Program-made: the position numbers and the translations under genes
Part shown: positions 1 through 17,691 of the stretch, one piece after another
Layout: the number at the start of each line of letters is the position of its first letter
How positions within the stretch are numbered: position 1 is the stretch's first letter
Source of the DNA: Candidatus Latescibacterota bacterium
GTDB taxonomy: Bacteria; Latescibacterota; UBA2968; GCA-2709665
Assembly (NCBI GenBank): GCA_965222075.1
Contig: OZ244937.1
Coordinates: 2,816,001 to 2,880,000 of the forward strand
Reading direction: 5' to 3'
DNA: 64,000 nucleotides
Notes under the pieces: model-generated
Database searches by the model: none
What the model was told of the DNA's origin: nothing
What the model saw: the letters and a program-made list of their open reading frames with translations, nothing else

Positions 1-2
1 TC

Positions 3-215
3 GATCCCTTCAACGGCGGTCAGGTGCTGACCAAAAATGCGTGTGCAGAGATCCTGGCGCGTTTCCAGGTCCACTCTGAAGAGGTCCCCCTTCCGGAGGC
101 TACCAACCGGAGAATTCTGGTCCGGATGATGCACAACCTGGTCAATTCCTATACCGTTCTGAGCGACCAAAAGCGGGCGGAAGCCCTCTTCAAATTTGTC
201 CAGATCCTCCAGTAG
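3..215 (+). CDS. C-terminal part of a SirB1/transglutaminase-like TPR protein (5'-truncated by window)
   Basis: Frame reads DPFNGGQVLT...ILVRMMHNL, typical of the SirB1 family. Confidence 0.6.
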   Translation, partial: DPFNGGQVLTKNACAEILARFQVHSEEVPLPEATNRRILVRMMHNLVNSYTVLSDQKRAEALFKFVQILQ

Positions 216-226
216 TCACCGCGCAC

Positions 227-250
227 GGGCGCACGGCCGTGCGCCCCTAA
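227..250 (-). repeat. REP-like palindrome (GTAG-family variant)
   Basis: GGGCGCACGGCCGTGCGCCC perfect palindrome followed by CTAA; intergenic. Confidence 0.6.
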
Positions 251-310
251 ACATCCATTTGCTTCTCCTGCCGAATTTTCTTATTATTCATCAACGCCAC
301 GAACGCTGCC

Positions 311-784
311 ATGTCCAACAGCATCAAAATCATTGTCCAGAACCGCAAGGCCCGCCGCGACTACAAAGTCCTGGACACCTACGAAGCCGGCCTTGAACTG
401 CGGGGCACCGAGGTCAAATCCCTGCGTCAGGGCAGGGGCAACCTCAAAAACAGCTATGCCCGGATAGAAGCGAACGAAGCCTTTTTGCACAATCTTCACA
501 TCAGCGAATACGCCCAGGGCAACCGGTTCAACCACGACCCCGTCCGAAAACGCAAGCTCCTGCTTCATCGGCACGAAATCAACCGCTTGAGAGGGCGCGT
601 GGAGGAAAAAGGCCTCACCCTGATCCCCCTCAAGCTCTACTTCAAACGGGGCAAGGCCAAGGTCGAACTCGCCCTGGCAAAGGGCAAGCGGGAATACGAC
701 CGGCGGCACGACATTGCAGAGCGCGATGCCAAACGAGAAATCGAAAGGGCCTTTAAGGAGAGAACGCTCACCCACCGGAGGTAA
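311..784 (+). CDS. smpB: SsrA-binding protein
   Basis: [44 protein letters not shown] motifs. Confidence 0.98.
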
Positions 785-2047
785 ATGACAGAACGAGATC
801 GGTGCACGCAGCGCAAAGATTTCCCCTTCTGCCTGTTCTGCGCCTGCCTGGTGCTCCTCTTGTTCTCCCCTTTCACATATGCCCAGACGCCCGGGACCGA
901 CGCCATCTCCCAAGTTCGGCTCCACACGGTCCAACTTGGAGGTGTTCCCTATCTCTCGCTGGGGGGCCTGGCGGAGACCCTGGGGGGACGGCTTCGTTCC
1001 CACCGGCTCAAGCAAAAAGTCGAACTGAAACTGGGCGGACACACCGTTGTCCTCACCTGGCTCTCGGCCCTCGTTGTCATAGACGATGTGGCCTGCCGGA
1101 TGCCCCTGGAAACCCGGCTCTACAGCGGCGGCGTCCACGTACCGGCGGATGCCTTCCTGACGCTTCTCCAGCGAATCATCCCCAAAGGGCGCATCCGGGT
1201 GGTACGGGAATCCCCCACGGCTGGCGCCGCGCCCCCTCCCTCCCCCGGCCGCCAGACAGAATCCGACGGGCGTGTGCCGAAGGTCGATCCGAAACGCTGG
1301 ACCCTCGACACCGTAATCGTTGATCCCGGCCACGGCGGCAAAGACCCGGGCGCCACAGGTCCGGGTGGAACGGCAGAAAAAAAGATCGCCCTGCGGGTCG
1401 CCAAACGCCTCAAAACCCTCCTGGAAAAGCGGCTTCGCGTCCGTGCCGTCCTCACCCGGGATGACGACACCTTTGTCCCGCTCCGGAAACGGGCTCAAAT
1501 GGCCAGAAAAAGCGGGGGGAAACTCTTTCTCAGCCTCCACTGCAACGCCAGCGAAAACCGGCGTTCCCGGGGCATGGAAGTCTACTTCCTCTCCGAGGCC
1601 AAAACCCTCGAAGCCGCCGAAGTGGCCAGGCGGGAAAACGAGGCTATCGCGTTCGAGAAAAACGGCGCTGATTCAGACCTGCCTGCAGCGCAGAGCACTG
1701 CGCAGGCAGGTGGACTCGATCCAGGACTTGGCGGCATCACCTCCGGTCTCCTCTCCACGCAATTTTTGAAAGAAAGCCAGAATCTGGCCGCCTCGATACG
1801 CACCGAAATTGCTCAGACCCTGGTCGGCGTGGAAGACCGGGGGGTGAAACAGGCCAACTTCTATGTGATGCGATACACCATGGGCGATATGCCCTCTGCC
1901 CTGGTCGAAATGGGCTTTCTTTCCAACCCCACAGAGGAAAAACGGCTGCGCAGCACCGCCTTTCAGAAAGCGATGGCTGAAGCCATCTACCGCGGCCTCA
2001 AAACCTTTAAACGCCGCTATGAACAACAACTCTCAACAGCCAGGTAG
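785..2047 (+). CDS. N-acetylmuramoyl-L-alanine amidase (Amidase_3) with signal peptide; contains an 11-aa hairpin insertion
   Basis: VIVDPGHGGKDPGA, LTRDDD, FLSLHCNA, ALVEMGFLSN Zn-binding motifs. Confidence 0.93.
   Translation: MTERDRCTQRKDFPFCLFCACLVLLLFSPFTYAQTPGTDAISQVRLHTVQLGGVPYLSLGGLAETLGGRLRSHRLKQKVELKLGGHTVVLTWLSALVVIDDVACRMPLETRLYSGGVHVPADAFLTLLQRIIPKGRIRVVRESPTAGAAPPPSPGRQTESDGRVPKVDPKRWTLDTVIVDPGHGGKDPGATGPGGTAEKKIALRVAKRLKTLLEKRLRVRAVLTRDDDTFVPLRKRAQMARKSGGKLFLSLHCNASENRRSRGMEVYFLSEAKTLEAAEVARRENEAIAFEKNGADSDLPAAQSTAQAGGLDPGLGGITSGLLSTQFLKESQNLAASIRTEIAQTLVGVEDRGVKQANFYVMRYTMGDMPSALVEMGFLSNPTEEKRLRSTAFQKAMAEAIYRGLKTFKRRYEQQLSTAR
1678..1710 (+). mobile_element. Hairpin micro-insertion copy 1 (33 bp), in-frame in the amidase
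   Basis: CCTGCCT GCAGCGC AGA GCACTGC GC AGGCAGG; near-identical to 6639 and 15015 copies. Confidence 0.85.
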
Positions 2048-2918
2048 ATCCTCTCCTTCCCGGATTGATCTCCATCCCCGCGATCCCGGCTACTACTACG
2101 ATCCCCATGTCGAAGCTGGACTACACGGAAAAATTAAGCTTTCACCTCGTGTTGAACACCACTGCAAATGTGGCGGGAAACCGCCTTATCAGATTTTCGA
2201 AAGTCCCGACGTCGAACCGGTCTGGTGCCCCTGCCGGTCCTATCAGATGAAGATCCGGCAGATCAATCGCTTCATTGTCGAATCGGGTATTCCGGCGCCG
2301 TTCCGATACAAATTCATAGACGACTTTCACGAAAGCTACGATGGGAAGCCGATCCCCGGGGCAGATCAACTTAAACAGCATCTCAGGACCTTGATAGAAA
2401 AAGCCCGTAGCCGGGAAGCATCATCCCAATCCAATGCTTCTACGGATTCGGTTCCGCCCCTCAGAGGATATTTTTTATGGAGTAAACCCGGCGCCGGTAA
2501 AACCTATTTCTCTTATATAGCCCTTAACGAACTGATCTTCTATTCCGTCCGACCCGGAAAGTTCATCAGCCTTTCCAAGGAATTCTTCCAGACGCTCAGA
2601 TTCGCTTTCGAAGAAAAAAGTCCTTTGCACGGTCAGTCGGAGACATTTATAAAAATCCTTAGCAACGCCCCCTTCCTGGTTATCGACGACTTCGGCGTAC
2701 AGCGCAACACGGAGTGGGAACTCGAGATGCTCTACAACCTGGTGGATACGCGCTACGCCAACCGGCGTTTTACGATTATTACAACCAACCAGAATATCGA
2801 AAGCATCAAGGATCTTGCAGACGGCAGGCTTTACTCCCGATTCCTGGAAATGTGCTACACCATCCACGTCCAGGCCCCGGACTACCGGGAACACTTTAAA
2901 AAAAAATACGAAATCTGA
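2019..2918 (+). CDS. DnaC/IstB-like AAA+ ATPase with N-terminal Cys cluster
   Basis: CKC...CPC, Walker A KPGAGKT, Walker B LVIDDFG, LVDTRY, TIITTN. Confidence 0.85.
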   Translation: MNNNSQQPGRSSPSRIDLHPRDPGYYYDPHVEAGLHGKIKLSPRVEHHCKCGGKPPYQIFESPDVEPVWCPCRSYQMKIRQINRFIVESGIPAPFRYKFIDDFHESYDGKPIPGADQLKQHLRTLIEKARSREASSQSNASTDSVPPLRGYFLWSKPGAGKTYFSYIALNELIFYSVRPGKFISLSKEFFQTLRFAFEEKSPLHGQSETFIKILSNAPFLVIDDFGVQRNTEWELEMLYNLVDTRYANRRFTIITTNQNIESIKDLADGRLYSRFLEMCYTIHVQAPDYREHFKKKYEI

Positions 2919-2930
2919 TAAACCATAGAA

Positions 2931-2987
2931 AGGGCAGAGGGCAAAGGTAAAACCCGTTCGTCTCGCTTTTTCTGCCCTTTGCCCTCT
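2931..2987. repeat. Inverted heptamer-repeat hairpin (AGGGCAG/CTGCCCT units)
   Basis: agggcagagggcaaagg ... ctgccctttgccctct between the ATPase and rph. Confidence 0.5.
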
Positions 2988-2998
2988 AAGGAGAACCC

Positions 2999-3715
2999 AT
3001 GACCCTGCGCCTCGACGGCCGAAGGCCGGATGAACTCCGCCCCACCAAAATCACCCGGGGCTTTATGAAACACGCCGAAGGATCGGCCCTCATCGAAATG
3101 GGGGAAACCAGGGTCATCTGCACGGCCAGCGTTGAAAACCGCGTCCCCCCCTTCCTTGTGGGCAAACGCACCGGATGGCTCACCGCCGAATACGCCATGC
3201 TCCCCCGCTCCACCCAAACGCGCAGCCAGCGGGAAACCCGGGGCACCAAAGGCCGCACCCAGGAGATTCAGCGCCTCATCGGCCGCACCCTCCGCGCCGT
3301 CGTCAACCTCGACAAACTGGGTGTACGTACCCTCTGGATCGACTGCGACGTCATCCAGGCCGATGGCGGCACCCGCACCGCCGCCATCTCCGGGGCCTAC
3401 GTCGCCGTCGCCGACGCGCTTGCCCATCTGTTCAAACGGAGACAGATCGATAAAAACCTGCTGCGTGACTCCGTGGCCGCCGTCAGCGTCGGCATCATCC
3501 ACGGCCAGCCCATGCTCGACCTCTGCTACACGGAGGATGTCTCTGCCGAAGTCGACATGAACATCGTCATGACCGGCTCCGGCAAATTCATCGAACTGCA
3601 GGGCACCGCCGAAGGCCAGCCCTTCAGCCGAACGCAGATGGACGCCATGGTCGTCCTGGCCAGAGCGGGCATCCAGCAGATCAGAGCGATTCAGGACGAT
3701 GTCCTTGAAAAATGA
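2999..3715 (+). CDS. rph: Ribonuclease PH
   Basis: [39 protein letters not shown]. Confidence 0.98.
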
Positions 3716-4311
3716 ATCCCCTCATCATCGCCACCCGCAATCCCGGCAAACTCGAAGAGATCCGCCAGATCCTCGGCCCTGAAATCCAGCTCCGTTCCCT
3801 TGCAGACTTCGCAGACCTCCCCGGCATCGTCGAAGACGGGGACACCTTTGAGGCCAACGCGGTCAAAAAGGCCCGCGCCGTCGCTCGCCATACCGGTTGT
3901 CCTGCCCTGGCCGATGATTCCGGCCTGGAGGTGGATGCGCTCGGCGGCGCCCCCGGCGTCCACTCTGCCCGTTTTGCGGGCGAAAAAGCGACCGACGCAC
4001 AGAACAACGCCAAACTCCTCCACCTGCTCGGTGAAACCCCAAAAGAAAAACGGACCGCACGCTTCCGGTGTGTCATTGTAGTCACAACACCAGACGGCGC
4101 GGTCCGCACTGCCCAGGGCAAGTGTGAAGGACGAATCCTGAAAAGGCCCAGAGGCCGTGGGGGATTCGGTTACGATCCCCTCTTTCTGGTACCGGCCCTC
4201 AAGCTTACTTTTGCTGAACTTTCTCCTGGTGAAAAAAACCGGATCAGCCACCGGGGCCGGGCCCTCAAGGCCGCCAGGCCCCTTATTCTGGACGCCCTGG
4301 CCCTCGACTAA
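3712..4311 (+). CDS. rdgB: dITP/XTP pyrophosphatase (Ham1 family)
   Basis: ATRNPGK, ADDSGL, GVHSARF, FGYDPLF, SHRGRA; follows rph. Confidence 0.96.
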
Positions 4312-4312
4312 T
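4289..4312 (+). repeat. Left 24-bp direct repeat (attL-like), the 3' end of rdgB
   Basis: TGGACGCCCTGGCCCTCGACTAAT identical to 20792-20815. Confidence 0.92.
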
Positions 4313-4375
4313 GGTGTGGTCTAAGAAGTCCTCGCCCACAGGTAACGCCAGGGGAACTCGACAGCAAGCGGCCCC

Positions 4376-4445
4376 CATTACTCCCCCCTTGAGGGGGAGT
4401 CGCAGAAGCCGAGCCGACAGGCGACGGCTGATGCGGTGGGGGGAT
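4376..4445 (+). repeat. MITE/REP-like element, copy A
   Basis: CATTACTCCCCCCTTGAGGGGGAGTCGCAGAAGCCGAGCCG...GATGCGGTGGGGGGAT; inverted copy at 20646-20760. Confidence 0.85.
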
Positions 4446-4484
4446 CGCAGATATGCCAGCGTAAACAAAAACGTGAAATATAGC

Positions 4485-4513
4485 GTAGGGACAGGGATTG
4501 CCTTTGCCCCTGC
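4485..4513 (+). repeat. Degenerate GTAG REP-like hairpin
   Basis: GTAGGGACAGGGATTGCCTTTGCCCCTGC. Confidence 0.4.
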
Positions 4514-4802
4514 GAGGTCACCCCCAAAGGGAGTCTCCAGCAACCTCGATACCCGTTCCCTACCTGAACATGAACAAATTCTACCTTGATAACAAAACAC
4601 CTTTTTTGTATATTTCCTTATGTCAACTATCAGGCAAACCTGCATGTCGGTAGCCTGCCGAATACAATAGCCAACGATCAATTGAAGGTATGCTGGAAGG
4701 ACAAGTCTTAAAATCTGCTCAACAATGAGGGACCAGAGGTCCAGTTAAGCGCCGTCCATATATTGGTGTTCCCCTCGGACCTGTTGAGTTAAGGAAGACG
4801 AC

Positions 4803-4988
4803 ATGCCAGCTTCTCAAGAATTTATGGACTATCACGCGGAAAGTCTTGCAGAACTCAAAGGGCTATCCCAACAGATGGACAAGCGTATTGAGTTTATGGA
4901 ACGTCTGTACATCAGTATAGATCGAAAATTGTGGGCAATTATCTTGCTTGTTATTGGTGCTATTGTTATTCCCCTCATTCGAAGTTAA
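4803..4988 (+). CDS. Small protein with coiled coil and C-terminal TM helix
   Basis: RBS AAGGA; hydrophobic tail LWAIILLVIGAIVIPLI. Confidence 0.6.
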   Translation: MPASQEFMDYHAESLAELKGLSQQMDKRIEFMERLYISIDRKLWAIILLVIGAIVIPLIRS

Positions 4989-5115
4989 AGGGGATAGGTA
5001 GCCTTCGCAAGCTCAAGAGATACTCTTCCCGACAGGCCGGAGCGCATGGCTTTGGTTATTCCCCCCAAAAAGAAAGTTCGAAAATTCCCCATAAAAGACG
5101 TAATGATGTAAAGCT

Positions 5116-5325
5116 TCAAGGGGTAAGCGTCCGGGCAACTCGAAAACCCCCATCGTTGTACCGGTAATCGGAACTGTACCTGATGCGACTCGCCGAGCGA
5201 AGGAGCCCCGGATAGCTGCACCACGAACCACCACGCAACACGCGCCTCGAGCACTCCCCGGACTCCCACGCAGACCCGTCAGCAGGTGCCCCCTCGTAAT
5301 TGCCGTTCCACACGATTGCGTCCAG
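5116..5325 (-). pseudogene. Orphan C-terminal fragment of an FGE-sulfatase (C-type lectin fold) domain
   Basis: [15 protein letters not shown]...RVLRGGSW...[10 protein letters not shown] with no intact N-terminus. Confidence 0.75.
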
Positions 5326-5356
5326 GTCGGCACAGCCTCCCTCCGAAGCACCCTCA

Positions 5357-5378
5357 CGCCCACAAGGGGCGCCCCTAC
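5357..5378 (-). repeat. Truncated GTAG REP at the junction of two gene fragments
   Basis: Minus strand GTAGGGGCGCCCCTTGTGGGCG. Confidence 0.55.
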
Positions 5379-5394
5379 CAGGATGACAATTCTG

Positions 5395-5665
5395 GCCAGC
5401 TGACGCCCGAAATCGTCCCTCCCGTCCCAATTCAGCGTGTAATACCCCGCCTCCAGGGTTGCATCGACCAGGGTCCGAACCTCCTGCCCCAGCAGGTTGT
5501 AAACCCCCAGATGGACCTGCCCCGACTCTGGCAACTGATATCCGATGGTCGTGGAAGGGTTGAACGGATTGGGCATATTCTGATCCAGACCGAAGCTGTC
5601 CGGCAGCGGCTTCAGGTTGCCAACCTCCAGGTGGTGGACCGGAAATTGCTGCCCATCGGGTGAAA
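5395..5665 (-). pseudogene. Fragment of a secreted protein: FlgD-Ig/secretion C-terminal sorting domain
   Basis: [15 protein letters not shown]...[13 protein letters not shown]...[12 protein letters not shown], truncated; ends approximate. Confidence 0.75.
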
Positions 5666-5702
5666 AAGCTTCAGGTACCGAGCCCGTACCAACGAAAATT
5701 GC

Positions 5703-5740
5703 TTGACTGGCTAAGTATTTTGTAACATATTTTGTAACAT
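5703..5740 (+). promoter_or_regulatory. Putative sigma70 promoter with a 12-bp tandem repeat
   Basis: TTGACT-17 nt-CATATT overlapping (TATTTTGTAACA)x2. Confidence 0.45.
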
Positions 5741-5803
5741 GTAAGAGGATGAAGTCCGTATCTTGTAATTGCGACGGGATGTTGTTGACTACGGAGGTCC
5801 GCC

Positions 5804-6319
5804 ATGGTCAGTGACGCTACTCGAAAGATGGCCTGGAATGAGTATCTGGATGTAGAGAGGGCGGCCAGATACTACGATGAACTTTCTCGTTATTATCGTA
5901 GGCGACACAATGCTGTCATGATAGGACTTGCGCTGTGCGCAATAGCTGGGGCTGGTCGCTTTATGTTTTCGGACTACGTAAGCAGGCTGGCTGAAGTCAT
6001 GGTAGATTTGGGCATTATAGCAGTTAGCGTGCTTGGCTTACTTGGGAATCATGCAAGAAAATCCGCCAGTCTTCATGCGGTTAGCGTGATGTGTTTTGAT
6101 TTGCAAGACAAACACAAAGCGTTGTGGTCGAAGATAGAAAACAATGCGATAGACAATAACGAAGCCTACGATATACTGATGGACCTTATTGAATCCGGCG
6201 AGAGGGCAACAAGTATTCCTGGTTGGGCAGATATTTCAGTAAATGACAAATTGAACAGCAAGAGCCAAAGAGAAGCAGATGATTCGCTGGTAGATCAATA
6301 TTCAATCAGGGAGGCATGA
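5804..6319 (+). CDS. Two-TM membrane protein, SLATT-like
   Basis: GGAGG RBS; helix (RYY...YYRRRH), two TM segments, helical tail. Confidence 0.6.
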   Translation: MVSDATRKMAWNEYLDVERAARYYDELSRYYRRRHNAVMIGLALCAIAGAGRFMFSDYVSRLAEVMVDLGIIAVSVLGLLGNHARKSASLHAVSVMCFDLQDKHKALWSKIENNAIDNNEAYDILMDLIESGERATSIPGWADISVNDKLNSKSQREADDSLVDQYSIREA

Positions 6320-6463
6320 TGGGGAAAGAGGCAGAGAAGAAAGAGCCATAAGGCCACCGCGTAATCCCGAAAGCCCCAGGCCAGCACCGCCCCCAAGGCC
6401 AGAAACAATTCCACAGTCACCACCCAGGCCACAATCACCGCCCGGACCACGAGAAAATAGATG

Positions 6464-6499
6464 ACAAAGAAGCCGAGGCGAAAACCTCGGCTTCTTTGT
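6464..6499 (+). terminator. Strong hairpin, probable intrinsic terminator
   Basis: ACAAAGAAGCCGAGG-cgaaaa-CCTCGGCTTCTTTGT, perfect 15-bp stem. Confidence 0.7.
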
Positions 6500-6631
6500 G
6501 CCTGTCGCATTCTCTATTTCAGGACGCCAGGTGGTGGATGCGGATGGGATTGGGTATGTGGTATCGGTATTCCATCGCATCGAATTGTCCCCAAACCCGG
6601 TTCGTTGCACGCGCCGACCACGTCACCCAAC

Positions 6632-6690
6632 GTAGGGGCCTGCCTGCAGCGCAGACCGCTGCGCAGGCAGGCAACCCTTGTGGTTGCCCT
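6632..6690 (+). repeat. GTAG REP interrupted by a micro-insertion
   Basis: Removing 6639-6671 gives GTAGGGGCAACCCTTGTGGTTGCCCT. Confidence 0.8.
6639..6671 (+). mobile_element. Hairpin micro-insertion copy 2 (33 bp)
   Basis: CCTGCCT GCAGCG CAGAC CGCTGC GC AGGCAGG. Confidence 0.9.
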
Positions 6691-6789
6691 GATTTCTGTA
6701 ACGGTGACCGTCGCTTCTGATCCGGTCACAGGCGATGTGGCACTCCCGGGCGTAACTACAGCGCCTTCAGTGATCGGGCTTCCCTGCTC

Positions 6790-7464
6790 TCACTCTTCCG
6801 CTTGGCCACAGGTACAGTCTTTCTCCCGATTTCTTTCCTCCAGACTGAAACCGATTTTATATCCTCCTTCTGTCCCCTTACCTGAGATACAGAGGTCCTT
6901 TGAGGCCCCATCCCCTGGTAGGTCTTCGTCTTTGAATTTGCGCGATCCTCTGAACAGGACCTTATCACCCCCGGCAAGCTTCTTCAAGAGGAAAGATTGC
7001 ACATCGTCGGCAGCGCCTCCCAAAGTTTCTGGAAGGGATAAGGGCAATGTCTCCGGGATGACGCCTTTGATCTTGCCGATGACAGCTCCAACAATTCCCC
7101 CCAGGGTATTCTTCACCTTGTCCCAAGCATCTTTCCGATCGACATCAATCACCTTGAACTGGATGGAATGAACGCTGTTTCCCTTCACGAGAAGAATCAG
7201 CCTATCCCAATCGTCGACGGCGCACATGTCAAACTGACTGTAACAGCCTTTATCCTCACTGTGACGGACATAGTTCGGCCTGTCCTTTCGACCCGTGTCG
7301 CACTCCCAGAAGGTATCCAGGCTCGGCATCACGGCGTGTTCCGTCGTGAACTGACCCTTGCTGTTGATGAACCGCAGGTCAACAACGAACCGAAAGTTGG
7401 CCTTGCCATTCGACAAGTCCTTGGGAAATAGAAACTTTGCGAGTGTGAGTTCGAAGGTTTTCAC
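6790..7464 (-). CDS. Hypothetical protein downstream of patatin (beta-rich, possibly C2-like)
   Basis: GTG start with GGAGGA RBS; alternating beta-strand patterns (FRFVVDLRF, SIQFKVIDVD). Confidence 0.6.
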   Translation of the reverse strand: MKTFELTLAKFLFPKDLSNGKANFRFVVDLRFINSKGQFTTEHAVMPSLDTFWECDTGRKDRPNYVRHSEDKGCYSQFDMCAVDDWDRLILLVKGNSVHSIQFKVIDVDRKDAWDKVKNTLGGIVGAVIGKIKGVIPETLPLSLPETLGGAADDVQSFLLKKLAGGDKVLFRGSRKFKDEDLPGDGASKDLCISGKGTEGGYKIGFSLEERNREKDCTCGQAEE

Positions 7465-7644
7465 GGGCGATTCCTCCTTGGTTGTCTTGTTTGGATCCAT
7501 AGCTCGGTAACCCCAAGACTCATGAGATCGAAATGAACTGGCCTCGTTCACCCCCCTTGCTCTTGACCATTTCCTCGCTTTCACGATGAACTGGCGTCCA
7601 TTCACGGCTTCATTTTGCGAGCAAAAATGAGGGCGTATTTTCAA

Positions 7645-9936: not shown

Positions 9937-10000
9937 TGGGGACCTCCGGATGCCTTTCTATCTGGTCAGTGGATATTCTATTTCGATACCTATTGCATCT

Positions 10001-10240
10001 TCAAGATGACTTCCAAAATGGTGGAAAGATTGCTGCTGGGATGAAGATATCTCCCAGACCTGACCCCCTCTCCAGCTCAGTTTCGATTTCATCAAGGATT
10101 CTGGTTCTTCTTTCAATCCAATGCTCTGAATCGCTTGCTTGCACCGTTGGAGATGCGTCCTGCACCGCCACGATTCCGGTGGCCGACAGTAGACAAGCAA
10201 CGATGGTTGCAGACAACTGGATTCATCGTGGCACAGTCAT
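10001..10240 (-). pseudogene. Small secreted-protein gene with premature TGA
   Basis: GGAGG RBS, MTVPR*IQLSATIVACLLSATG signal-like sequence. Confidence 0.35.
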
Positions 10241-10296
10241 ATTCTCTTTCCCTCCTTTCTTGTTGCCCTCAATGGGAAGCCTGAAATCAACGGACC

Positions 10297-10474
10297 GCCC
10301 CCCACGGTGGATCGCCAGTGGATGGGGCAACCGCTCCCCTCCGGTCGGGTGGCCTGCAAAGCGCGAGGACAGTATCCGCTGCTCCGGCTCGCCCAACTCC
10401 CTGGGCAAGGCGAACCGGACTTCGCGGTACGCCCGCCCGTTGGCCCACTCGTGCGCACGTCTTTTTGCCCAAAA
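10297..10474 (-). pseudogene. MobA/MobL (MOBQ) relaxase remnant
   Basis: EWANGRAYREVRFALPREL...TGGERLPHPLAIHRGG closely resembles the RSF1010 MobA motif II-III region. Confidence 0.75.
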
Positions 10475-10519
10475 ATCGACCCCACCACCAAAATCCATCC
10501 CCCTCCCTCCCCCACAAAA

Positions 10520-10549
10520 CCTGCCTGCCGCGCTCGCGGCGCAGGCAGG
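10520..10549 (+). mobile_element. Hairpin micro-insertion copy 3 (30 bp)
   Basis: CCTGCCT GCCGCG CT CGCGGC GC AGGCAGG. Confidence 0.88.
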
Positions 10550-10568
10550 GAGGTAAAGAGGTAAAGAT

Positions 10569-13019
10569 TCAAGGCTTAAGCGTCCGGGCAACTCGAAAAC
10601 CGTTGCCGATGCCGTAGAGCCGACGGTCTGCGGATTCCCTGTCGCGCCTAGCGGCGCGGAACGCCCCGTTGCCCGACGATCCGCCGCGCAAAACTCGATA
10701 TGAGCAGTCACCGCTCTCCCAGGCAGAACCGTCCGCTGGTGCTCCACGATAACTGCGGTTCCAGCAGTCCTGAACCCACTCCGACACGTTCCCGTGCATG
10801 TCGTGAAGACCCCAAGCGTTGGGAGCGAACGAACCCACCGGAAGAAAACGCCTAAGGTCTGGCCACCGGATGTCGCAACCATAGCAATTGGCCCGGTTGC
10901 TGCCGACCTCATCCCCCCAGCTATACCTCGTCGTCGTCCCCGCACGCGCGGCATACTCCCACTCCGCCTCGCTCGGCAAACGATACCGGTCCTCTCCCTC
11001 CATCTCGTTCAGCTTCCCTACAAACGACTGTGCATCATTCCACGAAACATACTTCACGGGGCAATCCCCGCACCCCTTGAAGTGTGACGGAGAAAGGCTA
11101 CCCATCACCGCCTCCCACAGCCCCTGCGTCACCTCATACTTACCCAGGTAGAACCCCTGGCTGATCGTCACCTCATGCACCGGCCCCTCGATGTCGCGAT
11201 GACCCTCCTCCGACGGAGGCGATCCCATCTGAAACGTTCCCGACGGTATCCGCACCATCTCCAGCTCTGCGCCCCCCGGCATTATAAAGATGATAGTAGG
11301 TGGTAGAGGACGTAATACTTCCACCTGCACCTGCCTGTCCAACCCGTTTGGCCGGTCGAACACAGTCAGAGTCGTTATCTGCCCGGAGTCCCCAACCGCG
11401 ATCGCCCCTGCCACCGACGCATCAACCGGATCCGGCTCGATCGCGATGATATCGCCGTCGCTCGACTCCCAGCGATACTGCGGGGATTTGAACTCCGGGA
11501 ACGTCACCGCCTGCAGGCGCACCGTATCGCCCTCGCCGATCCACAATTTCTGGATCCCGTCCGGGTTGGTAGGCAACGGTTTGACGAACACTTCCGGGCG
11601 CACCGAATAGAAATCCCTGCTATTGAAACTCCCTTCGATCGTGTAATTGACCTCATTCCCCTTCACACTCAACGCCAGCGAATGCTCCCCGTCCCCACGC
11701 TTGGGGCTGAGGTATCTCAGCCAGTAGAAACTGTCCGCGAACGAGACGATCCTTTTCTGAATCTCGATAAACCGGTCAGCCAGTTGATCAGCCAGTTTGC
11801 TCACGTCCGAGATCTGGAAGAATCCGGCGTTGCCCAGTTCCTTCAGGACTTCCGGGTCAATCTCGTTCCCCAGGCCGATGGTGTAGACATTCTTGTTTTC
11901 CCGCGCCGTAAGCGCCTCCGACAGCGTATAAGACCCCTGCGTGTCGCTCCCGTCGGTCAGGATGACCAGGAACCCCTGCTGGACTTCGGTTGTCGTAAAG
12001 ATGTCCTGCCACCGCCGGGTTCCGGTGATAATACTACCGTACAGGTTGGTGGTGGGAAAACCCAGACGGATCTCCCGAATCGCTTTGGTCAGGGCCGCCA
12101 CGTCGTCGGTGAAATCCTGCAAGAGCTCCGGCTTTTCAGAGAATTCGTACAGGGCGATCTCCTGGTTCTCGGTCATGTTTTGCACCAGAATGATCGCCGC
12201 CTGTTTAATCTGCTCCAGGTGTTCCTTTACGCTCGTGCTGGTGTCCAGCATCAGAACGGTCTTCACCCTGAAAGTATGCGGAATGGCCTCCCGCTTTTGG
12301 ACGCGCATTGCCGACTCGGTAGGGGACACGACCTGATCGTCCTCGCGCACTTCAAAGTGTTCGGTGGTCAGTGACGTCACTCCCCAGTTATCGGAGTCGA
12401 TTACCTGGAAGAGAATATTGACAAAGCTGGGCTCCTCGGTCGTGATCCGGTGTCTGACCAGCCTGAACCGAAATTCCACCACCCTCACGGTGATCGTCTC
12501 CGAAGCCCTCCCGCCCCGGCTGTCTCTTACCGTGAACGTGATGCGGTGGGTCTCGCCCTCGCCGCCTGTGGGGGTCCAGCGGAAGGTGGACCCCGAAAGC
12601 GACGATCCCTCGGGGTGGCCGCTCACACGGTAGGTCAGATCACCCCCATCCGGATCGGAAGCGACCAACTCTATGATCAGGGTACCGCCTTTTGGTACGC
12701 CCTGGTCGCCGATCCGCTCCAATATCGGCGCCTCGTTGGGAACGGCGCTTTGACCAAAAAATCCGGCGAACGCCACAAAATCCCCGAAACCCACCTGTCC
12801 GTCGCCATCCAGATCGTACTTTGCCTCGTACCTGCCATCGCCCTGGCTGGTCCCGAATTTGCCTGCAAACGACACAAAATCGCTGAAACCAACCTTGCCA
12901 TCGCCGTCAAAATCCGCATCCGCTGCGGTTTGGGCATACACAAAAGCAAGCCCTGCGAAAACAATCCCCAGCCCCACCAACAATCCACCAACAGACCTTC
13001 TCGTGAATTTCATTGCCAT
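10569..13019 (-). CDS. Secreted multidomain protein: dockerin/EF-hand-like, Ig, vWA and FGE-sulfatase domains
   Basis: DFDGDGKVGFSDF x2; LDTSTSV and ILTDGSD (MIDAS); YRLPSEAEWEYAARAG, GNVSEW, GFRVART. Confidence 0.88.
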   Translation of the reverse strand: MAMKFTRRSVGGLLVGLGIVFAGLAFVYAQTAADADFDGDGKVGFSDFVSFAGKFGTSQGDGRYEAKYDLDGDGQVGFGDFVAFAGFFGQSAVPNEAPILERIGDQGVPKGGTLIIELVASDPDGGDLTYRVSGHPEGSSLSGSTFRWTPTGGEGETHRITFTVRDSRGGRASETITVRVVEFRFRLVRHRITTEEPSFVNILFQVIDSDNWGVTSLTTEHFEVREDDQVVSPTESAMRVQKREAIPHTFRVKTVLMLDTSTSVKEHLEQIKQAAIILVQNMTENQEIALYEFSEKPELLQDFTDDVAALTKAIREIRLGFPTTNLYGSIITGTRRWQDIFTTTEVQQGFLVILTDGSDTQGSYTLSEALTARENKNVYTIGLGNEIDPEVLKELGNAGFFQISDVSKLADQLADRFIEIQKRIVSFADSFYWLRYLSPKRGDGEHSLALSVKGNEVNYTIEGSFNSRDFYSVRPEVFVKPLPTNPDGIQKLWIGEGDTVRLQAVTFPEFKSPQYRWESSDGDIIAIEPDPVDASVAGAIAVGDSGQITTLTVFDRPNGLDRQVQVEVLRPLPPTIIFIMPGGAELEMVRIPSGTFQMGSPPSEEGHRDIEGPVHEVTISQGFYLGKYEVTQGLWEAVMGSLSPSHFKGCGDCPVKYVSWNDAQSFVGKLNEMEGEDRYRLPSEAEWEYAARAGTTTRYSWGDEVGSNRANCYGCDIRWPDLRRFLPVGSFAPNAWGLHDMHGNVSEWVQDCWNRSYRGAPADGSAWESGDCSYRVLRGGSSGNGAFRAARRDRESADRRLYGIGNGFRVARTLKP

Positions 13020-13057
13020 ATCCTCCCAACTCCTTGATCCGGACCCGATCTTTCATA

Positions 13058-13076
13058 CCTGCCTGCAACAGGCAGG
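13058..13076. repeat. Minimal 19-bp variant of the micro-insertion palindrome
   Basis: CCTGCCTG CAA CAGGCAGG; no inner stem or GC bulge. Confidence 0.6.
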
Positions 13077-13085
13077 CAGCAACCA

Positions 13086-13118
13086 CCTGCCTGCCGAGCA
13101 GATCTCGGCGCAGGCAGG
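13086..13118 (+). mobile_element. Hairpin micro-insertion copy 4 (33 bp)
   Basis: CCTGCCT GCCGAG CAGAT CTCGGC GC AGGCAGG. Confidence 0.88.
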
Positions 13119-13123
13119 CAGGG

Positions 13124-14653
13124 TCAGAATGCTGATCCCTCCACCAGATCGTATGCCTTGATCCGGCGACGGAGGGTATTGCGCGAAATGCCAAGCAACC
13201 CGGCAGCCCGGCTCTGATTTCCATCGCACCTGCGGATGGCCTCCCCCACCGCCTGCCGTTCAAGCGCGGCCAGATTCAGGCTCTCCACCCCGGCCACATC
13301 CAGCGCAACGGGCAGACCGCCCGCCTCGCAAGGGACAGGCCTGCCTGCTGGCGCGCCAGCGCAGGCAGGCGCCGTCTGCCTGCGGCTGTCCGGCAATCCA
13401 CCCGCCTGCCTGCCGGGCAGATCTCGGCGCAGGCAGGCGCCAACAGTCAGATCCTGCAGGTGATCTGCCCTCACCTGACCGTTCCCGCACAGAATCGCAG
13501 CCCGTTCAATCGTATTGTTCAACTCTCGAACATTGCCAGGAAAAGGGTAGGCCTCCAGCAGCGCCACCGCCTCCGGGGCAAACCCCTGGATCGACTTGCG
13601 CATCTCCTTCGCATACCGGCTTAAAAAGTACTGCGCCAGCGGGAGAATATCCTCCAAACGCTCCCGCAGCAGCGGAACCCGGATGGTGAACACATTGAGC
13701 CGGTAGAACAGATCCTCCCGAAAAACACCCTCACGGACCATCCCGGACAGATCCCGGTTCGTGGCCGAGACCACCCGCACATCCACCGCAACCTCCCTGC
13801 ACCCGCCCACCCGACGGATACACTTCTCCTCCAGGGTGCGCAACAGCTTCCTCTGCATCCCCAGGTCCATATCGCCGATCTCGTCCAAAAACAGCGTGCC
13901 CCCGTCCGCCTGCTCAAAGTGGCCCTTCCGTGCCCGCCGGGCATCGGTGAACGCACCCTGTTCGTGGCCGTAGAACTCGCTTTCAAACAGCGCCTCAGGG
14001 ACGGCCGAGCAATTCACAGGCACAAACGGTCCGCCTGCCCGGGCGCTTTCGGTGTGAATGGCCCGCGCCACCAGCTCCTTGCCCGTACCCGTCTCGCCGC
14101 AGACGAGCACCGTGGTATCCACAGACTGGCAGACCTGCCGGATCTGCTCCCGCACCGCGCAAATGGCCCCACTCTCCCCCACAATCGCCGCCAGCCCAAA
14201 GCGCTGCCTGGACTCCGTGTTGATGCGCTCCAGACGCGCCTGCATCCTGTTCTTCTCCCGATGAAGCCCCTGGTAACGCATGGTCCGCTGCAAAGAAGCG
14301 TTCAGCTCCTCCACCTTGAACGGCTTCGTAAAAAAATCAAAAGCCCCATCCCGCATCGCCCGAAAGGCATGCTCGACCTCACTGAAGGCCGTAATCACAA
14401 TCACCTCCGTATCAGGAGACAGGCGCTTGACCTCCCTTAAGACCTCGAACCCATCCATCCCCGGCATCTTCACATCCGTGATCACGATGTCAACAGCCTC
14501 CCTCCGAAGGACCTTCACGCCCACGAACCCGTCTGCGGCCTCGTAGACCATGTGCCCCCGCGCCTGCAGAAACATCCCCACGGAAGACCGGATCTCCGGG
14601 TCGTCATCAATCACCAGAATGGACATCGGGATCTTTTTGTCGGACCTGGGCAT
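13124..14653 (-). CDS. Sigma-54-dependent response regulator (REC-AAA-Fis HTH)
   Basis: ILVIDDD, DVKMPGMDG, GETGTGKE, GAFTDA, FLDEIG, FREDLFYRL; GGAGG RBS before 14653. Confidence 0.93.
   Translation of the reverse strand: MPRSDKKIPMSILVIDDDPEIRSSVGMFLQARGHMVYEAADGFVGVKVLRREAVDIVITDVKMPGMDGFEVLREVKRLSPDTEVIVITAFSEVEHAFRAMRDGAFDFFTKPFKVEELNASLQRTMRYQGLHREKNRMQARLERINTESRQRFGLAAIVGESGAICAVREQIRQVCQSVDTTVLVCGETGTGKELVARAIHTESARAGGPFVPVNCSAVPEALFESEFYGHEQGAFTDARRARKGHFEQADGGTLFLDEIGDMDLGMQRKLLRTLEEKCIRRVGGCREVAVDVRVVSATNRDLSGMVREGVFREDLFYRLNVFTIRVPLLRERLEDILPLAQYFLSRYAKEMRKSIQGFAPEAVALLEAYPFPGNVRELNNTIERAAILCGNGQVRADHLQDLTVGACLRRDLPGRQAGGLPDSRRQTAPACAGAPAGRPVPCEAGGLPVALDVAGVESLNLAALERQAVGEAIRRCDGNQSRAAGLLGISRNTLRRRIKAYDLVEGSAF
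13340..13369 (+). mobile_element. Hairpin micro-insertion copy 5 (30 bp), in-frame in the regulator linker
   Basis: CCTGCCT GCTGGC GC GCCAGC GC AGGCAGG. Confidence 0.88.
13405..13437 (+). mobile_element. Hairpin micro-insertion copy 6 (33 bp), in-frame in the regulator linker
   Basis: One mismatch from copy 4 (13086-13118). Confidence 0.88.
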
Positions 14654-15014
14654 CGTTATCGGCCTCCCCTGAGGTGATGAAAATTCTTCCCTGAACCCTT
14701 TTGTCGGTGCTGCAAAGACCGTCACGGGCGCGAGGGACGTGTCGGTACCCTCCCTGAATCGCCCTTCCAGGCCAGCAGAGCGAGTCCGAGAGTGGACATG
14801 GCCTTGTGGCAACGTCGTCCCAAGGACGTGATCCATCACTCCGACCAGGGATCGCAGTATACCTCCATCGCCTTTGGTCTGCGCTGCAAAAGGGCCGGTG
14901 TCCGTCCCTCCACAGGATCGGTCGGAGACTGCTTCGACAACGCGATGTGCGAGAGTTTCTTCGCTACACTCGAATGCGAACTGCTCGACCGCCACTGCTT
15001 CCGCATTTACCAGG

Positions 15015-15047
15015 CCTGCCTGCAGCGCAGGGCACTGCGCAGGCAGG
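15015..15047 (+). mobile_element. Hairpin micro-insertion copy 7 (33 bp) in the IS3 remnant
   Basis: One mismatch from copy 1; removal gives FRIYQEAQRALF. Confidence 0.9.
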
Positions 15048-15078
15048 AAGCGCAACGGGCCCTCTTCGCGTATATCGA

Positions 15079-15105
15079 CCTGTCTGCGTGCTACGCACAG
15101 GCAGG
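15079..15105 (-). mobile_element. Hairpin micro-insertion copy 8 (27 bp) in the IS3 remnant
   Basis: Removal restores TAT ATC GAG GGG TGG TAT AAT (YIEGWYN). Confidence 0.92.
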
Positions 15106-15407
15106 GGGGTGGTATAATCCACATCGCAGACATTCAGCTCTGGGATACGACTCACCCACAACCTACGAAGAAAAACACCAGGCATGGGCTTGACACCCAA
15201 GCCTAAAACCGTCCACGAAACCGAGGTAACTCCAGTTAAAGCACTCTATTTCAATCAGCATTACCTGGATCGAATTATTCGCATCTTCGGTTGGGCGCGG
15301 TCCCATAGTGTGACAAAAAAGATAGCATAACATCCTCAATAATTTCTTATGGTTAGAGGAAAGTTTGGGAAATTTACTTCTAACCAACAAGAATCAGAAA
15401 GGACGTT

Positions 15408-16925
15408 ATGCTGGATCATATCATAGATCAAGTGACAGAAAAAGTCAACCAAAAGTTGCCTAAGATGGTGAGCGACCTGCAAGAGAGTCTTTCGTTTGCC
15501 GACTTGGAGCATGGCTTGATCGGTTTGCTCCAGGAGGTGGTGGGCATCGTCGTGAGTCCGGTGTTGAATCAGGTTTTTCAGGATGAGGCCTTGCTGTTTG
15601 GGCTGCGTCAGGCAGCCGGTAGTATGGGCTACAGATATAAGGAACATCGGCCTTTGACCGTACGGGTTTTGGAAGGTGTAGAAGTTGAAGTCTCTTCGCC
15701 CTATTTCGTTAAGCGGGGTCGCAAACGGGGCAGGAAGAAGCGGGGTCCCAATGGTCGAGGGTGTCATCTGTTATTGGATGTGCTTGGGTTTATCGGTCGG
15801 TGCAGTCCGGAGTTTGTAGATGAAGCTGTGAAGTTGGCCTTGTTATGCCCCTCCTTTGAGGTGGCCACTCAGGTGTTGGATGCCCGTCAGATAAAGCTGG
15901 ACAAAAAAACCCTTCGAAGATTGTGCAAAGCTTTAGGCGAATTGGGTCTGGAGCAGAGAGCCACGATTGCTCTAAAAGATGAGCTCTCCTTTTCAGGTCG
16001 CACGGTGTATATCGGCATCGATGGGGGTCGGATGCGGATGCGTGAGCCCAAGCGGGGTCGAAAGCCAAAGGGAAAGAAATATCCCCGATATGATACACCT
16101 TGGAGAGAACCCAAGTTGTTTACCATCTACATGTTGGACGAAAAAGGTCGCGTCGAAAAATCGTGGACGCCTATCCACGATGCGACTCGGGGCAATGCCG
16201 ATTTGATGTTTGAGATGCTGGAAGCTACCCTTTTGGAACTGCCCCTGCAACAGGCCGATCGGGTCGTGTTTATCGCCGATGGGGCAGAATGGATCTGGCC
16301 GAGGGTAGAGCGTCTGATCTGGAGGTTGGGGGTGCCTCCAAGCAAGGCGATCCAGATCCTCGACTATTACCATAATAGTGAAACCCTCTTTGAACTGGTG
16401 CAACTCCAACCCAAGCTTAAAGAAAAGGCACAACGTGCCCTGTATGAGACGTGGAAGACCTGGATGTGGAATGGGGAGCTTTTAAAACTCCGACCTGCCT
16501 GTGCGTGCTGTCTCACGCACGCAGACAGGAAAGAAGTGCTCCAGCAGCTTCGCGGGGAAAAACGAAAACAGGCCATCACATCCCTGAACCATTTCGACCG
16601 TCATGCGCATCGAATGCGCTATCCTACCTTCAAAGAACAGGGCCTTCCCACCTGTCTGCGTGCCACGCACAGGCAGGTCGGAAGTGGACACGTCGAAAGC
16701 GCCATCCGTCGTGTCATCAACCTTCGGATCAAAGCACCAGGCACGTTCTGGAAAAAAGACATGGGCGAATACTTCCTGTTTCTGCGCTCACAGTTGATCT
16801 GTGGAAGATGGCCTATCTTCTTCCAGAATGTCACAGGACGATACCGAACGGGTGAGTTTGCCCAACATCTCTTTCCCTCTTCTCCGAAAATGGGTTTGCT
16901 CAAGACAGGGACAGATGATCACTAA
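15408..16925 (+). CDS. DDE transposase (ISKra4/ISLre2-like) with two in-frame insertions
   Basis: IGIDGG, FIADGAEWIW, ILDYYH, GLP[insert]GSGHVESA. Confidence 0.88.
   Translation: MLDHIIDQVTEKVNQKLPKMVSDLQESLSFADLEHGLIGLLQEVVGIVVSPVLNQVFQDEALLFGLRQAAGSMGYRYKEHRPLTVRVLEGVEVEVSSPYFVKRGRKRGRKKRGPNGRGCHLLLDVLGFIGRCSPEFVDEAVKLALLCPSFEVATQVLDARQIKLDKKTLRRLCKALGELGLEQRATIALKDELSFSGRTVYIGIDGGRMRMREPKRGRKPKGKKYPRYDTPWREPKLFTIYMLDEKGRVEKSWTPIHDATRGNADLMFEMLEATLLELPLQQADRVVFIADGAEWIWPRVERLIWRLGVPPSKAIQILDYYHNSETLFELVQLQPKLKEKAQRALYETWKTWMWNGELLKLRPACACCLTHADRKEVLQQLRGEKRKQAITSLNHFDRHAHRMRYPTFKEQGLPTCLRATHRQVGSGHVESAIRRVINLRIKAPGTFWKKDMGEYFLFLRSQLICGRWPIFFQNVTGRYRTGEFAQHLFPSSPKMGLLKTGTDDH
16494..16529 (+). 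mobile_element. Hairpin micro-insertion copy 9 (36 bp)
   Basis: CCTGCCT GTGCGTG CTGTCT CACGCAC GC AGACAGG. Confidence 0.88.
16651..16677 (-). mobile_element. Hairpin micro-insertion copy 10 (27 bp)
   Basis: One mismatch from copy 8; removal restores GLPIGSG. Confidence 0.92.
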
Positions 16926-17691
16926 CGCAATCAACCGCTTATTCAACAACTTAACACGACTTTCTATATGTCATACTTTAGGACTGCACCCTCTTCGGTT
17001 TGGACAATATGGTGAACAGTTTTTCTGCGTATGAGTTCAAATAAATCAAGGGGTTACAAATGGACGCCCTTTTTTTTTAAACTTAGCCCATCCCCTGAGT
17101 TTAAAAAAACGGCTGATTTAAAAAAGGCTTGTATTTTAACAACTTATCATTTTTAAGCCGTTAAGAACTTACCAAAAAGTATTCACAGTATTGATATCGT
17201 TGCCACAATGACAATAACGAAGATCACGAAAATAAAAACCAACATCAACATGTTGAATCTCCTTTCACGTCAACAGGGGGGTAATGTCTTAAATTTCCTG
17301 CAAAAAGAACCGGCGCGAACTATCTTCCTGAGGTCATTATCAAACTCAACGCCCCGAGTGGGCACAATGCCATCGGCATGGACAAACGGGATGGGCGGGT
17401 TGGACTTCACATGTAGCCGATCATCACCGCGGTAACAGGCGGAACGTCTTCTTCGCTCATTTCCTCCTCCTTTCAGTTGATGTTCGAGAGTCCGCCGTGG
17501 ACGGTGCTGCGTGGTCCGTTCATCGAACAAGAGCGCCCGCGAAGCGTTCGTGGGCTCGGGAGATTCCCCAGCAGACAGCAGGTCGGGTCACGCTCATGAC
17601 CGCCACGGCGGGCTCGATGCTCCATTTTGTCCGAACCTCGTCATGCGTTCCCAGAATGTTGACCCCCGGCACCTCCTGGTGAAGAGACTGA

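Follow-up and report, generated by a model that had tools for sequence, protein, structure and literature searches.

Single hairpins present or absent at matching sites: a probable REP-like repeat family in a Candidatus Latescibacterota genome

Background

Short hairpins of similar build recur within and between the genes of a 64,000-nt stretch of the genome of a Candidatus Latescibacterota bacterium. The question raised by this locus is whether these hairpins are mobile units and, if so, by what they are moved. The stretch, referred to here as the window, comprises bases 2816001-2880000 of a genome that consists of a single contig of 5,360,005 bp with a G+C content of 59.3% (the source genome, G000). 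Positions in the window are counted from its first base; larger numbers are positions in the genome. An earlier inspection of the window (the original prediction) had described ten such hairpins as one family of frame-preserving insertions. According to the follow-up presented here, the window copies are probably members of a genome-wide, orphan family of mobile hairpins that resembles the repetitive extragenic palindromes (REPs) of other bacteria. At corresponding sites, a single hairpin is either there or missing; its boundaries are exact and the target is not duplicated.

Architecture and copy number

The pattern CCTGCCT-N(8,24)-GCAGRCAGG matches the window at all ten positions given by the original prediction, and no match was obtained in 100 dinucleotide-preserving shuffles of the window. 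The eight-base arm CCTGCCTG occurs 29 times in the window, compared to 3.06 expected occurrences, and this overrepresentation led to an eleventh copy of 19 bp at 13058-13076. Genome-wide, 240 minimal copies with 120 distinct sequences were found, as expected for the dispersed, non-autonomous family that had been proposed. Copy lengths range from 19 to 44 bp with a mode of 33 bp: 93 copies measure 33 bp, 53 measure 27 bp, 20 measure 30 bp, 16 measure 25 bp, 13 measure 36 bp, nine measure 21 bp, eight measure 19 bp and seven measure 34 bp, and the other lengths account for 21 copies.

Two broad types can be distinguished, namely 131 copies with symmetric ends and 109 asymmetric copies with the 3' end GCAGACAGG. 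All types follow a common plan of CCTGCCT, an inner hairpin whose sequence is free, GC, and AG(G/A)CAGG. The 5' end CCTGCCTG and the 3' end GCAG(G/A)CAGG are fixed, and the middle is variable and self-complementary. The elements are G+C-rich, with predicted DNA fold energies of -5 to -19 kcal/mol (DNA parameters). The pairing of six inner base pairs was scored in 36 distinct 33-mers: 199 of the 216 cells pair, compared to a mean of 82% after permutation of the partners (highest of 500 permutations, 87%) and 26-56% in slid registers. Among the 33-mers, two inner-stem positions alternate between C-G and A-T. The predicted anatomy, with an outer stem, a GC bulge and a co-varying inner stem, is therefore confirmed. 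A search of window positions 1-17500 against Rfam returned two weak, unrelated matches (E 0.22 and 0.45), none of them at an element.

Identical middles are found at many unrelated sites, one 33-mer occurring 22 times and one 27-mer 13 times. Elements are also nested within each other; a 27-mer lies inside a 33-mer at 3341949, and a 30-mer is located within the loop of a 27-mer at 3208656-3208716. Among the 239 pairs of neighboring elements, 42 are at most 400 bp apart, and their spacing, orientation and type are all mixed. An organization in inverted doublets at fixed spacing was rejected, given these mixed pairs and the presence or absence of single units.

Filled and empty sites

Within the source genome, paralogous sequences of 82-95% identity differ by exactly one element. 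Such empty sites correspond to a 27-bp element at 3464535 (TGCCGA^TTTGAT), 25-bp elements at 3464970 (TGCGCA^TCGAAT) and 3018895 (CTCATT^TACATT), and a 27-bp element at 297352. For a congener (G001), two 20-kb stretches with six elements were compared by anchoring on the flanks, which are 93-99% identical. Four of the six sites are clean empty sites, lacking 39 bp, 36 bp, 36 bp, and a nested 27+33 = 60 bp, respectively, and all four lie within genes; of the other two, one is ambiguous and one has no orthologue. No target duplication is seen at any clean empty site in the paralogues or the congener.

A similar picture is obtained for the element in the N-acetylmuramoyl-L-alanine amidase gene of the window, which encodes 11 residues (LPAAQSTAQAG). 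These residues are found in none of the eight orthologues, from four other genera, that were detected among 25 relatives. The DNA of the closest orthologue (G004, 72% identity) is short by exactly 33 nt. The insert sits in a gap-rich stretch between conserved blocks.

Public sequencing runs, represented by assembled contigs rather than raw reads, provide evidence at the population level. Uncovered parts and joints with sides of 20-30 letters (e.g. 13406 to 13440) were not counted. The elements are present in contigs of three DNA runs from three studies. In contigs of runs X1, X3, X5 and X18, position 16493 is joined to 16530, such that exactly the 36-mer is skipped. Record 14 of X18, an RNA run, has a 27-letter gap in 16530-16745 and hence lacks the 27-mer at 16651, with just four further differences over its 544 letters. 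In contigs of X1, X3 and X5, positions 13084 and 13124 are separated by six other letters, a net loss of 33. Since the joined form 16493-16530 is also found in DNA runs, it represents an empty DNA allele and not RNA processing. Taken together, the empty sites in paralogues, orthologues and public contigs point to mobile single hairpins, in agreement with the precise, duplication-free insertion that had been proposed, and exclude an assembly artefact.

A longer repeat family of about 250-450 bp is found at 3992300-3992780 and in more than 60 other places of the source genome. In about ten of its copies, the commonest 33-mer is found, always at the same position; many others are empty there, judging from alignments that end at the two edges of the element. 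The same or a similar repeat is present at many contig ends of G001.

Genomic position

Genes were called using a self-trained hexamer model (4,022 genes covering 87.7% of the genome), which recovers the Pfam-supported genes of the window. The majority of copies (124 of 240) are intergenic, 110 are located inside called genes and 6 on gene edges. As intergenic DNA makes up 12% of the genome, this is an approximately four-fold enrichment. Long open frames run through the stop-free elements, and the coding signal of 150 nt on each side was therefore scored in addition. Both flanks are coding on one strand for 53 of the 240 copies, compared to 1338 of 2000 random positions; the copies are depleted in coding DNA.

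In 43 of these 53 copies, the length is divisible by three (3n) and a single frame is maintained; a further three are 3n+1 elements whose flanking frames would join upon removal of the element, and seven are other cases. The 25-mers, with 16 copies in the genome, are absent from this set. The 43 in-frame copies use all six phases, 16 of them the phase read as x-L-P-A/V ... Q-A/T-G, and are divided between the sense (21) and the antisense (22) orientation relative to the gene. They encode short loops or linkers that are mostly rich in Ala, Gln, Pro and Arg, adding about 6-13 residues to the respective protein; peptides of 9-12 residues had been anticipated.

The distribution of intergenic copies over spacer types is as predicted by spacer length, with 76 observed and 83.8 expected in tandem, 32 and 23.6 in divergent, and 16 and 16.6 in convergent spacers. 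Closeness to 3' gene ends is slight (46 of 76). A preference for 3' gene ends or for convergent spacers was rejected based on these counts. At the insertion point, a purine precedes the element in 209 and a pyrimidine follows it in 208 of the 234 oriented copies. Both flanking bases are retained in empty sites, and the purine at -1 and the pyrimidine at +1 hence belong to the target. Further upstream there is a bias but no fixed tetranucleotide: C at -4 is found in 146 and CCGA in 32 of the 234 copies, which partly stems from nesting in other copies.

Length classes and stop codons

The lengths predicted for the ten window copies are correct, but the rule that all are multiples of three does not hold genome-wide, where 25-, 19- and 34-mers exist: 195 of the 240 copies (81%) and 93 of the 120 distinct sequences are 3n. 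Within stem lineages, the variants of 27, 30, 33 and 36 bp hold most copies. The 3n share does not differ between copies with non-coding flanks (75 of 93) and those with coding flanks (46 of 53; Fisher p 0.37). The lengths of copies with non-coding flanks are thus not random with respect to three, and the similar shares indicate that the rule is a property of dominant lineages and not of a site-by-site filter. None of the three observations that would have spoken against the original prediction was made: orthologous empty sites exist, copies with non-coding flanks are mostly 3n, and independently obtained short-read contigs contain the elements. In two relatives with many copies, hand counts from printed coordinates gave 3n shares of 66 of 94 listed copies (G003) and 39 of 82 (G024), and 19-, 20-, 26- and 31-mers are common there. 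Frame preservation is accordingly a strong tendency in the source genome that depends on the lineage, and not the fixed property originally suggested.

Of the 240 copies, 213 (89%) are free of stop codons in every one of the six frames, which extends the earlier observation in the window to the genome. The share is 28% for random genomic pieces, 53% for copies with shuffled inner parts, and already 75% for shuffles that keep the palindrome. Most of the stop avoidance is therefore attributable to G+C-rich composition and symmetry.

Distribution across the phylum

At least 16 forward matches to the pattern were found in 13 of 168 genomes of the phylum, namely 12 in the family of the window's own genome plus G024 in the next family; the remaining genomes have 0-5 matches. 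Besides the source genome, twelve genomes thus carry 16 to 232 copies each. Reversed-pattern controls gave 0-1 matches per genome. Within one genus, copy numbers range from 0 to 232, and the congener G001 has about one tenth of the copies of the source genome. The patchy distribution and the empty sites of the congener point to a recent, lineage-specific spread. A full-text literature search, judged by titles and abstracts, returned no paper on such repeats in Latescibacterota.

In three genomes of other families (G047, G064 and G079), a few copies identical or nearly identical to the 27- and 33-mers of the source genome are located on small contigs, the family being otherwise absent. These could be due to transfer or to mis-binned contigs.

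Search for a mobilizing enzyme

A number of results weigh against the reading as a mobile, REP-like family, and most of them come from the search for its enzyme. Gene brackets, ends of insertion sequences (IS), flanks of genes for REP-associated tyrosine transposases (RAYTs) and the Y1_Tnp domain were all checked, and none ties an enzyme to the hairpin family. No gene of the source genome is regularly bracketed by elements; the five bracketed genes are of unrelated kinds. None of the IS-like repeats of at least 600 bp (77 merged segments in the source genome) ends in the motif, and where a segment boundary touches an element, it reflects a filled/empty difference. The classical Y1_Tnp domain (PF01797) was rejected as a candidate, as the number of its matches in 41 genomes does not track that of the elements; G004 combines 32 matches with 2 copies, and G019 combines 0 matches with 76 copies. 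An intact IS200-like gene of the source genome (2071880-2072323) has no element nearby.

The source genome encodes one RAYT-like gene (3242104-3242871), the C-terminal part of which matches the NCBIfam model of REP-associated tyrosine transposases with an E value of 5e-15, below the cut-off of the model. This gene is flanked on both sides by GTAG-type hairpins, a family of about 8 copies in this genome, and not by the elements described here. In its layout this is a classical RAYT locus, except that the palindrome is a different one. In favor of a RAYT, such a match is present in every one of the 12 family genomes that have at least 16 copies, two of these matches containing a stop, and 6 of the 10 family genomes with at most 3 copies have none. 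This co-occurrence could reflect shared ancestry, the genomes being kin, and G024, with 65 copies, has no RAYT-like match at E 1e-5. Among the relatives, 2 of 22 RAYT-like loci have an element at most 30 bp away and two more have one within about 0.3-0.9 kb; otherwise, these loci are flanked by three other kinds of hairpins. In the source genome, none of the relatives' hairpins occurs beyond chance-level near-matches (two kinds with 0 at up to 2 mismatches, a third with 2, and a G+C-rich fourth with 6-14 at 1-2 mismatches). The proposed HUH or RAYT enzyme is thus not supported by its neighborhood, the RAYT-like genes of the clade being flanked by other palindromes.

Further points against the reading concern the elements themselves. 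Absence in a relative cannot, on its own, separate insertion from precise loss. The copies of the source genome show no clear orientation bias by replication arm. They are non-independent events, such that nominal statistics on the 3n excess are too strong, and the 3n share falls to less than half in the hand count of G024. The stop avoidance exceeds that of palindrome-keeping shuffles only modestly, and selection as the cause of the 3n lengths is something we infer.

The RAYT-like gene of the source genome forms a cassette with a 66-aa gene (3241466-3242984), which is bounded by direct repeats that contain the GTAG-type hairpins and sits within an aromatic amino-acid biosynthesis gene cluster. 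At the matching site of G001, the congener with about a tenth of the copies, the cassette is absent and a single GTAG hairpin is found, which also counts in favor of a RAYT. The RAYT-like paralogues of G001-G021 fall into subgroups, each with its own hairpin repeat (three kinds), and some of them lie in open frames of 1,200-1,441 codons. One of these RAYT-associated hairpin kinds has the nine bases GCAGACAGG in common with the 3' end of the asymmetric elements, which may or may not be meaningful.

Interpretation and alternatives

If the elements form an orphan REP-like family, new copies would be produced in trans, by an enzyme recognizing the fixed ends together with the hairpin on single-stranded DNA. 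The unpaired 5' CCTG may play the role of the REP tetranucleotide tag. That the hairpins are transposed by some protein is very probable. As to its kind, a HUH tyrosine transposase of the RAYT or IS200-IS605 type acting in trans is the best guess, given a hairpin with a tetranucleotide, insertion that is precise and duplication-free, and elements nested in loops, though the assignment is tentative and somewhat more doubtful than not. With 88% of the genome coding, 3n and stop-free lineages would leave more surviving copies, which in turn would be recopied; such lineages would thereby come to dominate even among the intergenic copies.

The elements may also be moved by an enzyme outside the HUH group, e.g. 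a recombinase that, like an integron integrase, acts on folded hairpins, an unrecognized nuclease or ligase, or a route by reverse transcriptase. This is less likely, although every examined RAYT-like gene has other cognate hairpins and G024 maintains its 65 copies without a RAYT-like match. With its bulge, its fixed ends and its free middle, the hairpin may also be compared to the attC sites of integrons; the elements are, however, far below attC size and do not appear to lie next to gene cassettes, although no search was aimed at cassettes or integrase genes, and no candidate gene was found to adjoin them. A DDE transposase should leave target duplications, and none are seen. A different view is that the hairpins serve the host as structural sites under selection, such as terminators, mRNA stabilizers or binding sites for host proteins. 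Their fold energies (-5 to -19 kcal/mol) indicate stable hairpins, and roles of this type have been proposed for REPs (PMC3733652). Such a function is nevertheless improbable here, as intergenic copies follow spacer length with only a slight shift towards 3' ends, counts in close relatives are as low as 0-3, copies lie within coding frames on both strands, and no Rfam family matches.

Even less probable is that the hairpins are excision footprints of a larger transposon, or that empty sites arose by precise deletion of old sequence. Hairpins are deletion-prone in general, and a comparison of two genomes gives no direction. On the other hand, none of the larger repeats of the source genome has the motif at its ends, many unrelated sites share the same middles (the 33-mer with 22 and the 27-mer with 13 copies), and elements are nested in the loops of others. 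In the case of the amidase, the absence of the insert from all eight orthologues makes a gain the simpler reading. Finally, hardly any weight can be given to an assembly or adapter artefact: the elements are present in contigs assembled independently from the runs of three studies, they recur in the twelve further genomes, and reading frames stay open in conserved genes.

Comparison with known repeats

REPs are 20-40 bp long, carry a GTAG or CGTC tag, comprise sub-families with alternative complementary stems and are frequently found as dimers; certain units are contained entirely within genes, to which they contribute encoded residues, and the CGTC REPs have no dedicated transposase, as described by Di Nocera et al. 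(2013, PMC3733652). The present elements share much with this description (PMC3733652): they are G+C-rich imperfect palindromes with stem sub-families, within the range of tens to thousands of copies, patchy among relatives and mostly intergenic, some copies inside genes add loop or linker residues, and a dedicated transposase is lacking as in CGTC REPs. The general kind, i.e. short palindromic repeats inside genes, is known (PMC3733652). Unlike REPs, the elements have no GTAG or CGTC tag, both ends are fixed (CCTGCCTG ... CAGRCAGG), and copies are mostly singlets without dimers, clusters or a preference for 3' gene ends. Clean empty sites of single units are documented, and the length classes fall on multiples of three. 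The family works like a REP family, yet the GTAG/CGTC tag, the doublets and a RAYT flanked by the family are missing.

For REPINs, the doublet was argued to be the replicating unit, and no excision of singlets was observed in 56 million reads, according to Bertels and Rainey (2011, PMC3116915). REPINs are described there as non-autonomous palindromic repeats, which a single-copy HUH tyrosine transposase presumably mobilizes in trans via single-stranded DNA (PMC3116915). The source genome likewise has a RAYT-like gene flanked by REPs, though GTAG-type ones; the unit that is present or absent is, in contrast, a single hairpin.

Like the Rickettsia palindromic elements (RPEs), the hairpins are in-frame palindromic inserts in functional genes. 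RPE-1 of Rickettsia is about 100-150 bp long; with 19-39 bp the present elements are far shorter, and their phylum is unrelated. Two short RPEs, RPE-4 and RPE-6, are assigned to the CGTC REPs in PMC3733652.

The elements differ in sequence and phylum from the small dispersed repeats of cyanobacteria. Those repeats, described by Elhai et al. in 2008, are reportedly about 21-27 nt long, mobile, nested, capable of forming hairpins and variably present in repeat copies; they are reportedly rare in coding DNA, and no length rule is known to have been described for them. Elements of the IS200/IS605 group (IS608), the single-strand transposition of which is summarized in PMC3116915, are hundreds of bases or longer, with unlike left and right ends, insertion 3' of one fixed tetra- or pentanucleotide and one favored replication strand. 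A hairpin, a tetranucleotide by the foot of the hairpin and precise insertion without target duplication are shared with IS608; the loose purine^pyrimidine target and the missing strand bias are not. Miniature inverted-repeat transposable elements have terminal inverted repeats, target-site duplications and lengths of about 50-500 bp; the present elements have 8-bp inverted ends, but they show no duplication and measure only 19-39 bp. An attC site is a bulged hairpin of 57-141 bp with core sites, found at cassette boundaries beside an integrase; the size of the elements, 19-39 bp, already falls outside this range.

While REP-like repeats are widespread, the way in which their single units spread is not settled, and the best-studied case argues for doublets only. 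The present family provides many clean filled/empty pairs of single hairpins, between paralogues, between orthologues and within populations, and does so in complete genomes from an uncultured phylum. What it adds to known REP biology is the well-documented movement of singlets and the length classes on multiples of three. For the latter, no earlier report was found in REP-like repeats by the full-text literature search or in the main text of PMC3733652, in which "multiple of" occurs 0 times (the supplementary table of intragenic REPs is not covered by this count). In the classes of 27, 30, 33 and 36 bp, the mark left by coding constraint on the composition of a repeat family can be measured. 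If this held for independent insertions, it would be a simple case of selection acting on a genomic parasite by way of the harm it does, and a source of small in-frame protein insertions. More speculatively, and with less confidence than is given to a HUH enzyme, the elements might be the smallest self-propagating DNA units of bacteria, i.e. singlets of about 19-39 nt that transpose on single-stranded DNA, with lineages selected to be frame-harmless (3n, stop-free) and an enzyme perhaps of a kind new to such repeats. The coding nine tenths of a compact genome would then be habitable for such units, and proteins would steadily gain short loops. Since copy numbers differ sharply between close relatives, comparative genomics can be used to answer the question of the enzyme.

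Window copies and their host genes

The first window copy is a 33-bp element with symmetric ends (1678-1710, + strand), which lies in frame in the gene for the Amidase_3 protein of 420 aa (785-2047, +; E 2e-52), where it encodes the 11 residues mentioned above; a contig of run X5 spans it. Two further in-frame copies of 30 bp (13340-13369, +) and 33 bp (13405-13437, +) fall within the linker that connects the AAA+ lid to the HTH_8 domain of a sigma-54-dependent response regulator, encoded on the minus strand (13124-15133). The 33-bp copy is also present in a paralogous gene piece at 500150. The open frame of this regulator has 669 aa, and its true start is probably later, as the receiver domain starts at residue 172. 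The doubtful N-terminal extension harbors a 33-bp element (15015-15047, +), probably upstream of the true start, and a 27-bp element with the asymmetric 3' end (15079-15105, -). An ISKra4-like transposase gene (15408-16925, +; 505 aa) contains two asymmetric elements in frame, one of 36 bp (16494-16529, +) and one of 27 bp (16651-16677, -).

The remaining copies are a 33-bp element in an open frame, with neither flank showing a coding signal (6639-6671, +), a 30-bp element 20 bp past the stop of a minus-strand gene at 10569-13019 (10520-10549, +), the added 19-bp minimal copy at 13058-13076, which consists of both arms and a 3-nt loop and has no strand assigned, and a 33-bp element between two genes (13086-13118, +), followed by one extra CAGG. 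Based on flank scoring, the copies at 1678, 13340 and 13405 are solidly coding, with flanks coding in one frame. Those at 16494 and 16651 are probably coding as well, given that the NCBIfam alignment of the ISKra4-like frame spans residues 105-468. The N-terminal extension with the copies at 15015 and 15079 has no coding signal on that strand, and the copies at 6639, 10520, 13058 and 13086 scored as non-coding. The seven copies initially assigned to coding sequence are therefore an overcount, and 3 to 5 of the original ten are convincingly coding.

A paralogue of the ISKra4-like gene (3463599-3465300, 95% identical) has extra insertions including a 27-mer and a 25-mer, the latter of which would shift the frame. 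The amidase gene (window 800-2017) is absent in G001, where the sequences corresponding to 237-799 and 2018-4315 abut; its closest relative, at 72% identity, belongs to another genus. Much of the window from 5 to 17 kb has no close counterpart in G001, and this element-rich part consequently looks like variable DNA.

A different repeat of about 64 nt is located at 4380-4443 and opens with a perfect hairpin (8-bp stem, 4-nt loop). A variant of this hairpin occurs within the 250-450-bp repeat described above. The 64-nt repeat is found with 96-99% identity on at least 12 contigs of G001, and in the public runs it reaches summed contig depths of 2,500-7,000, with loose ends at 4380 and 4443.

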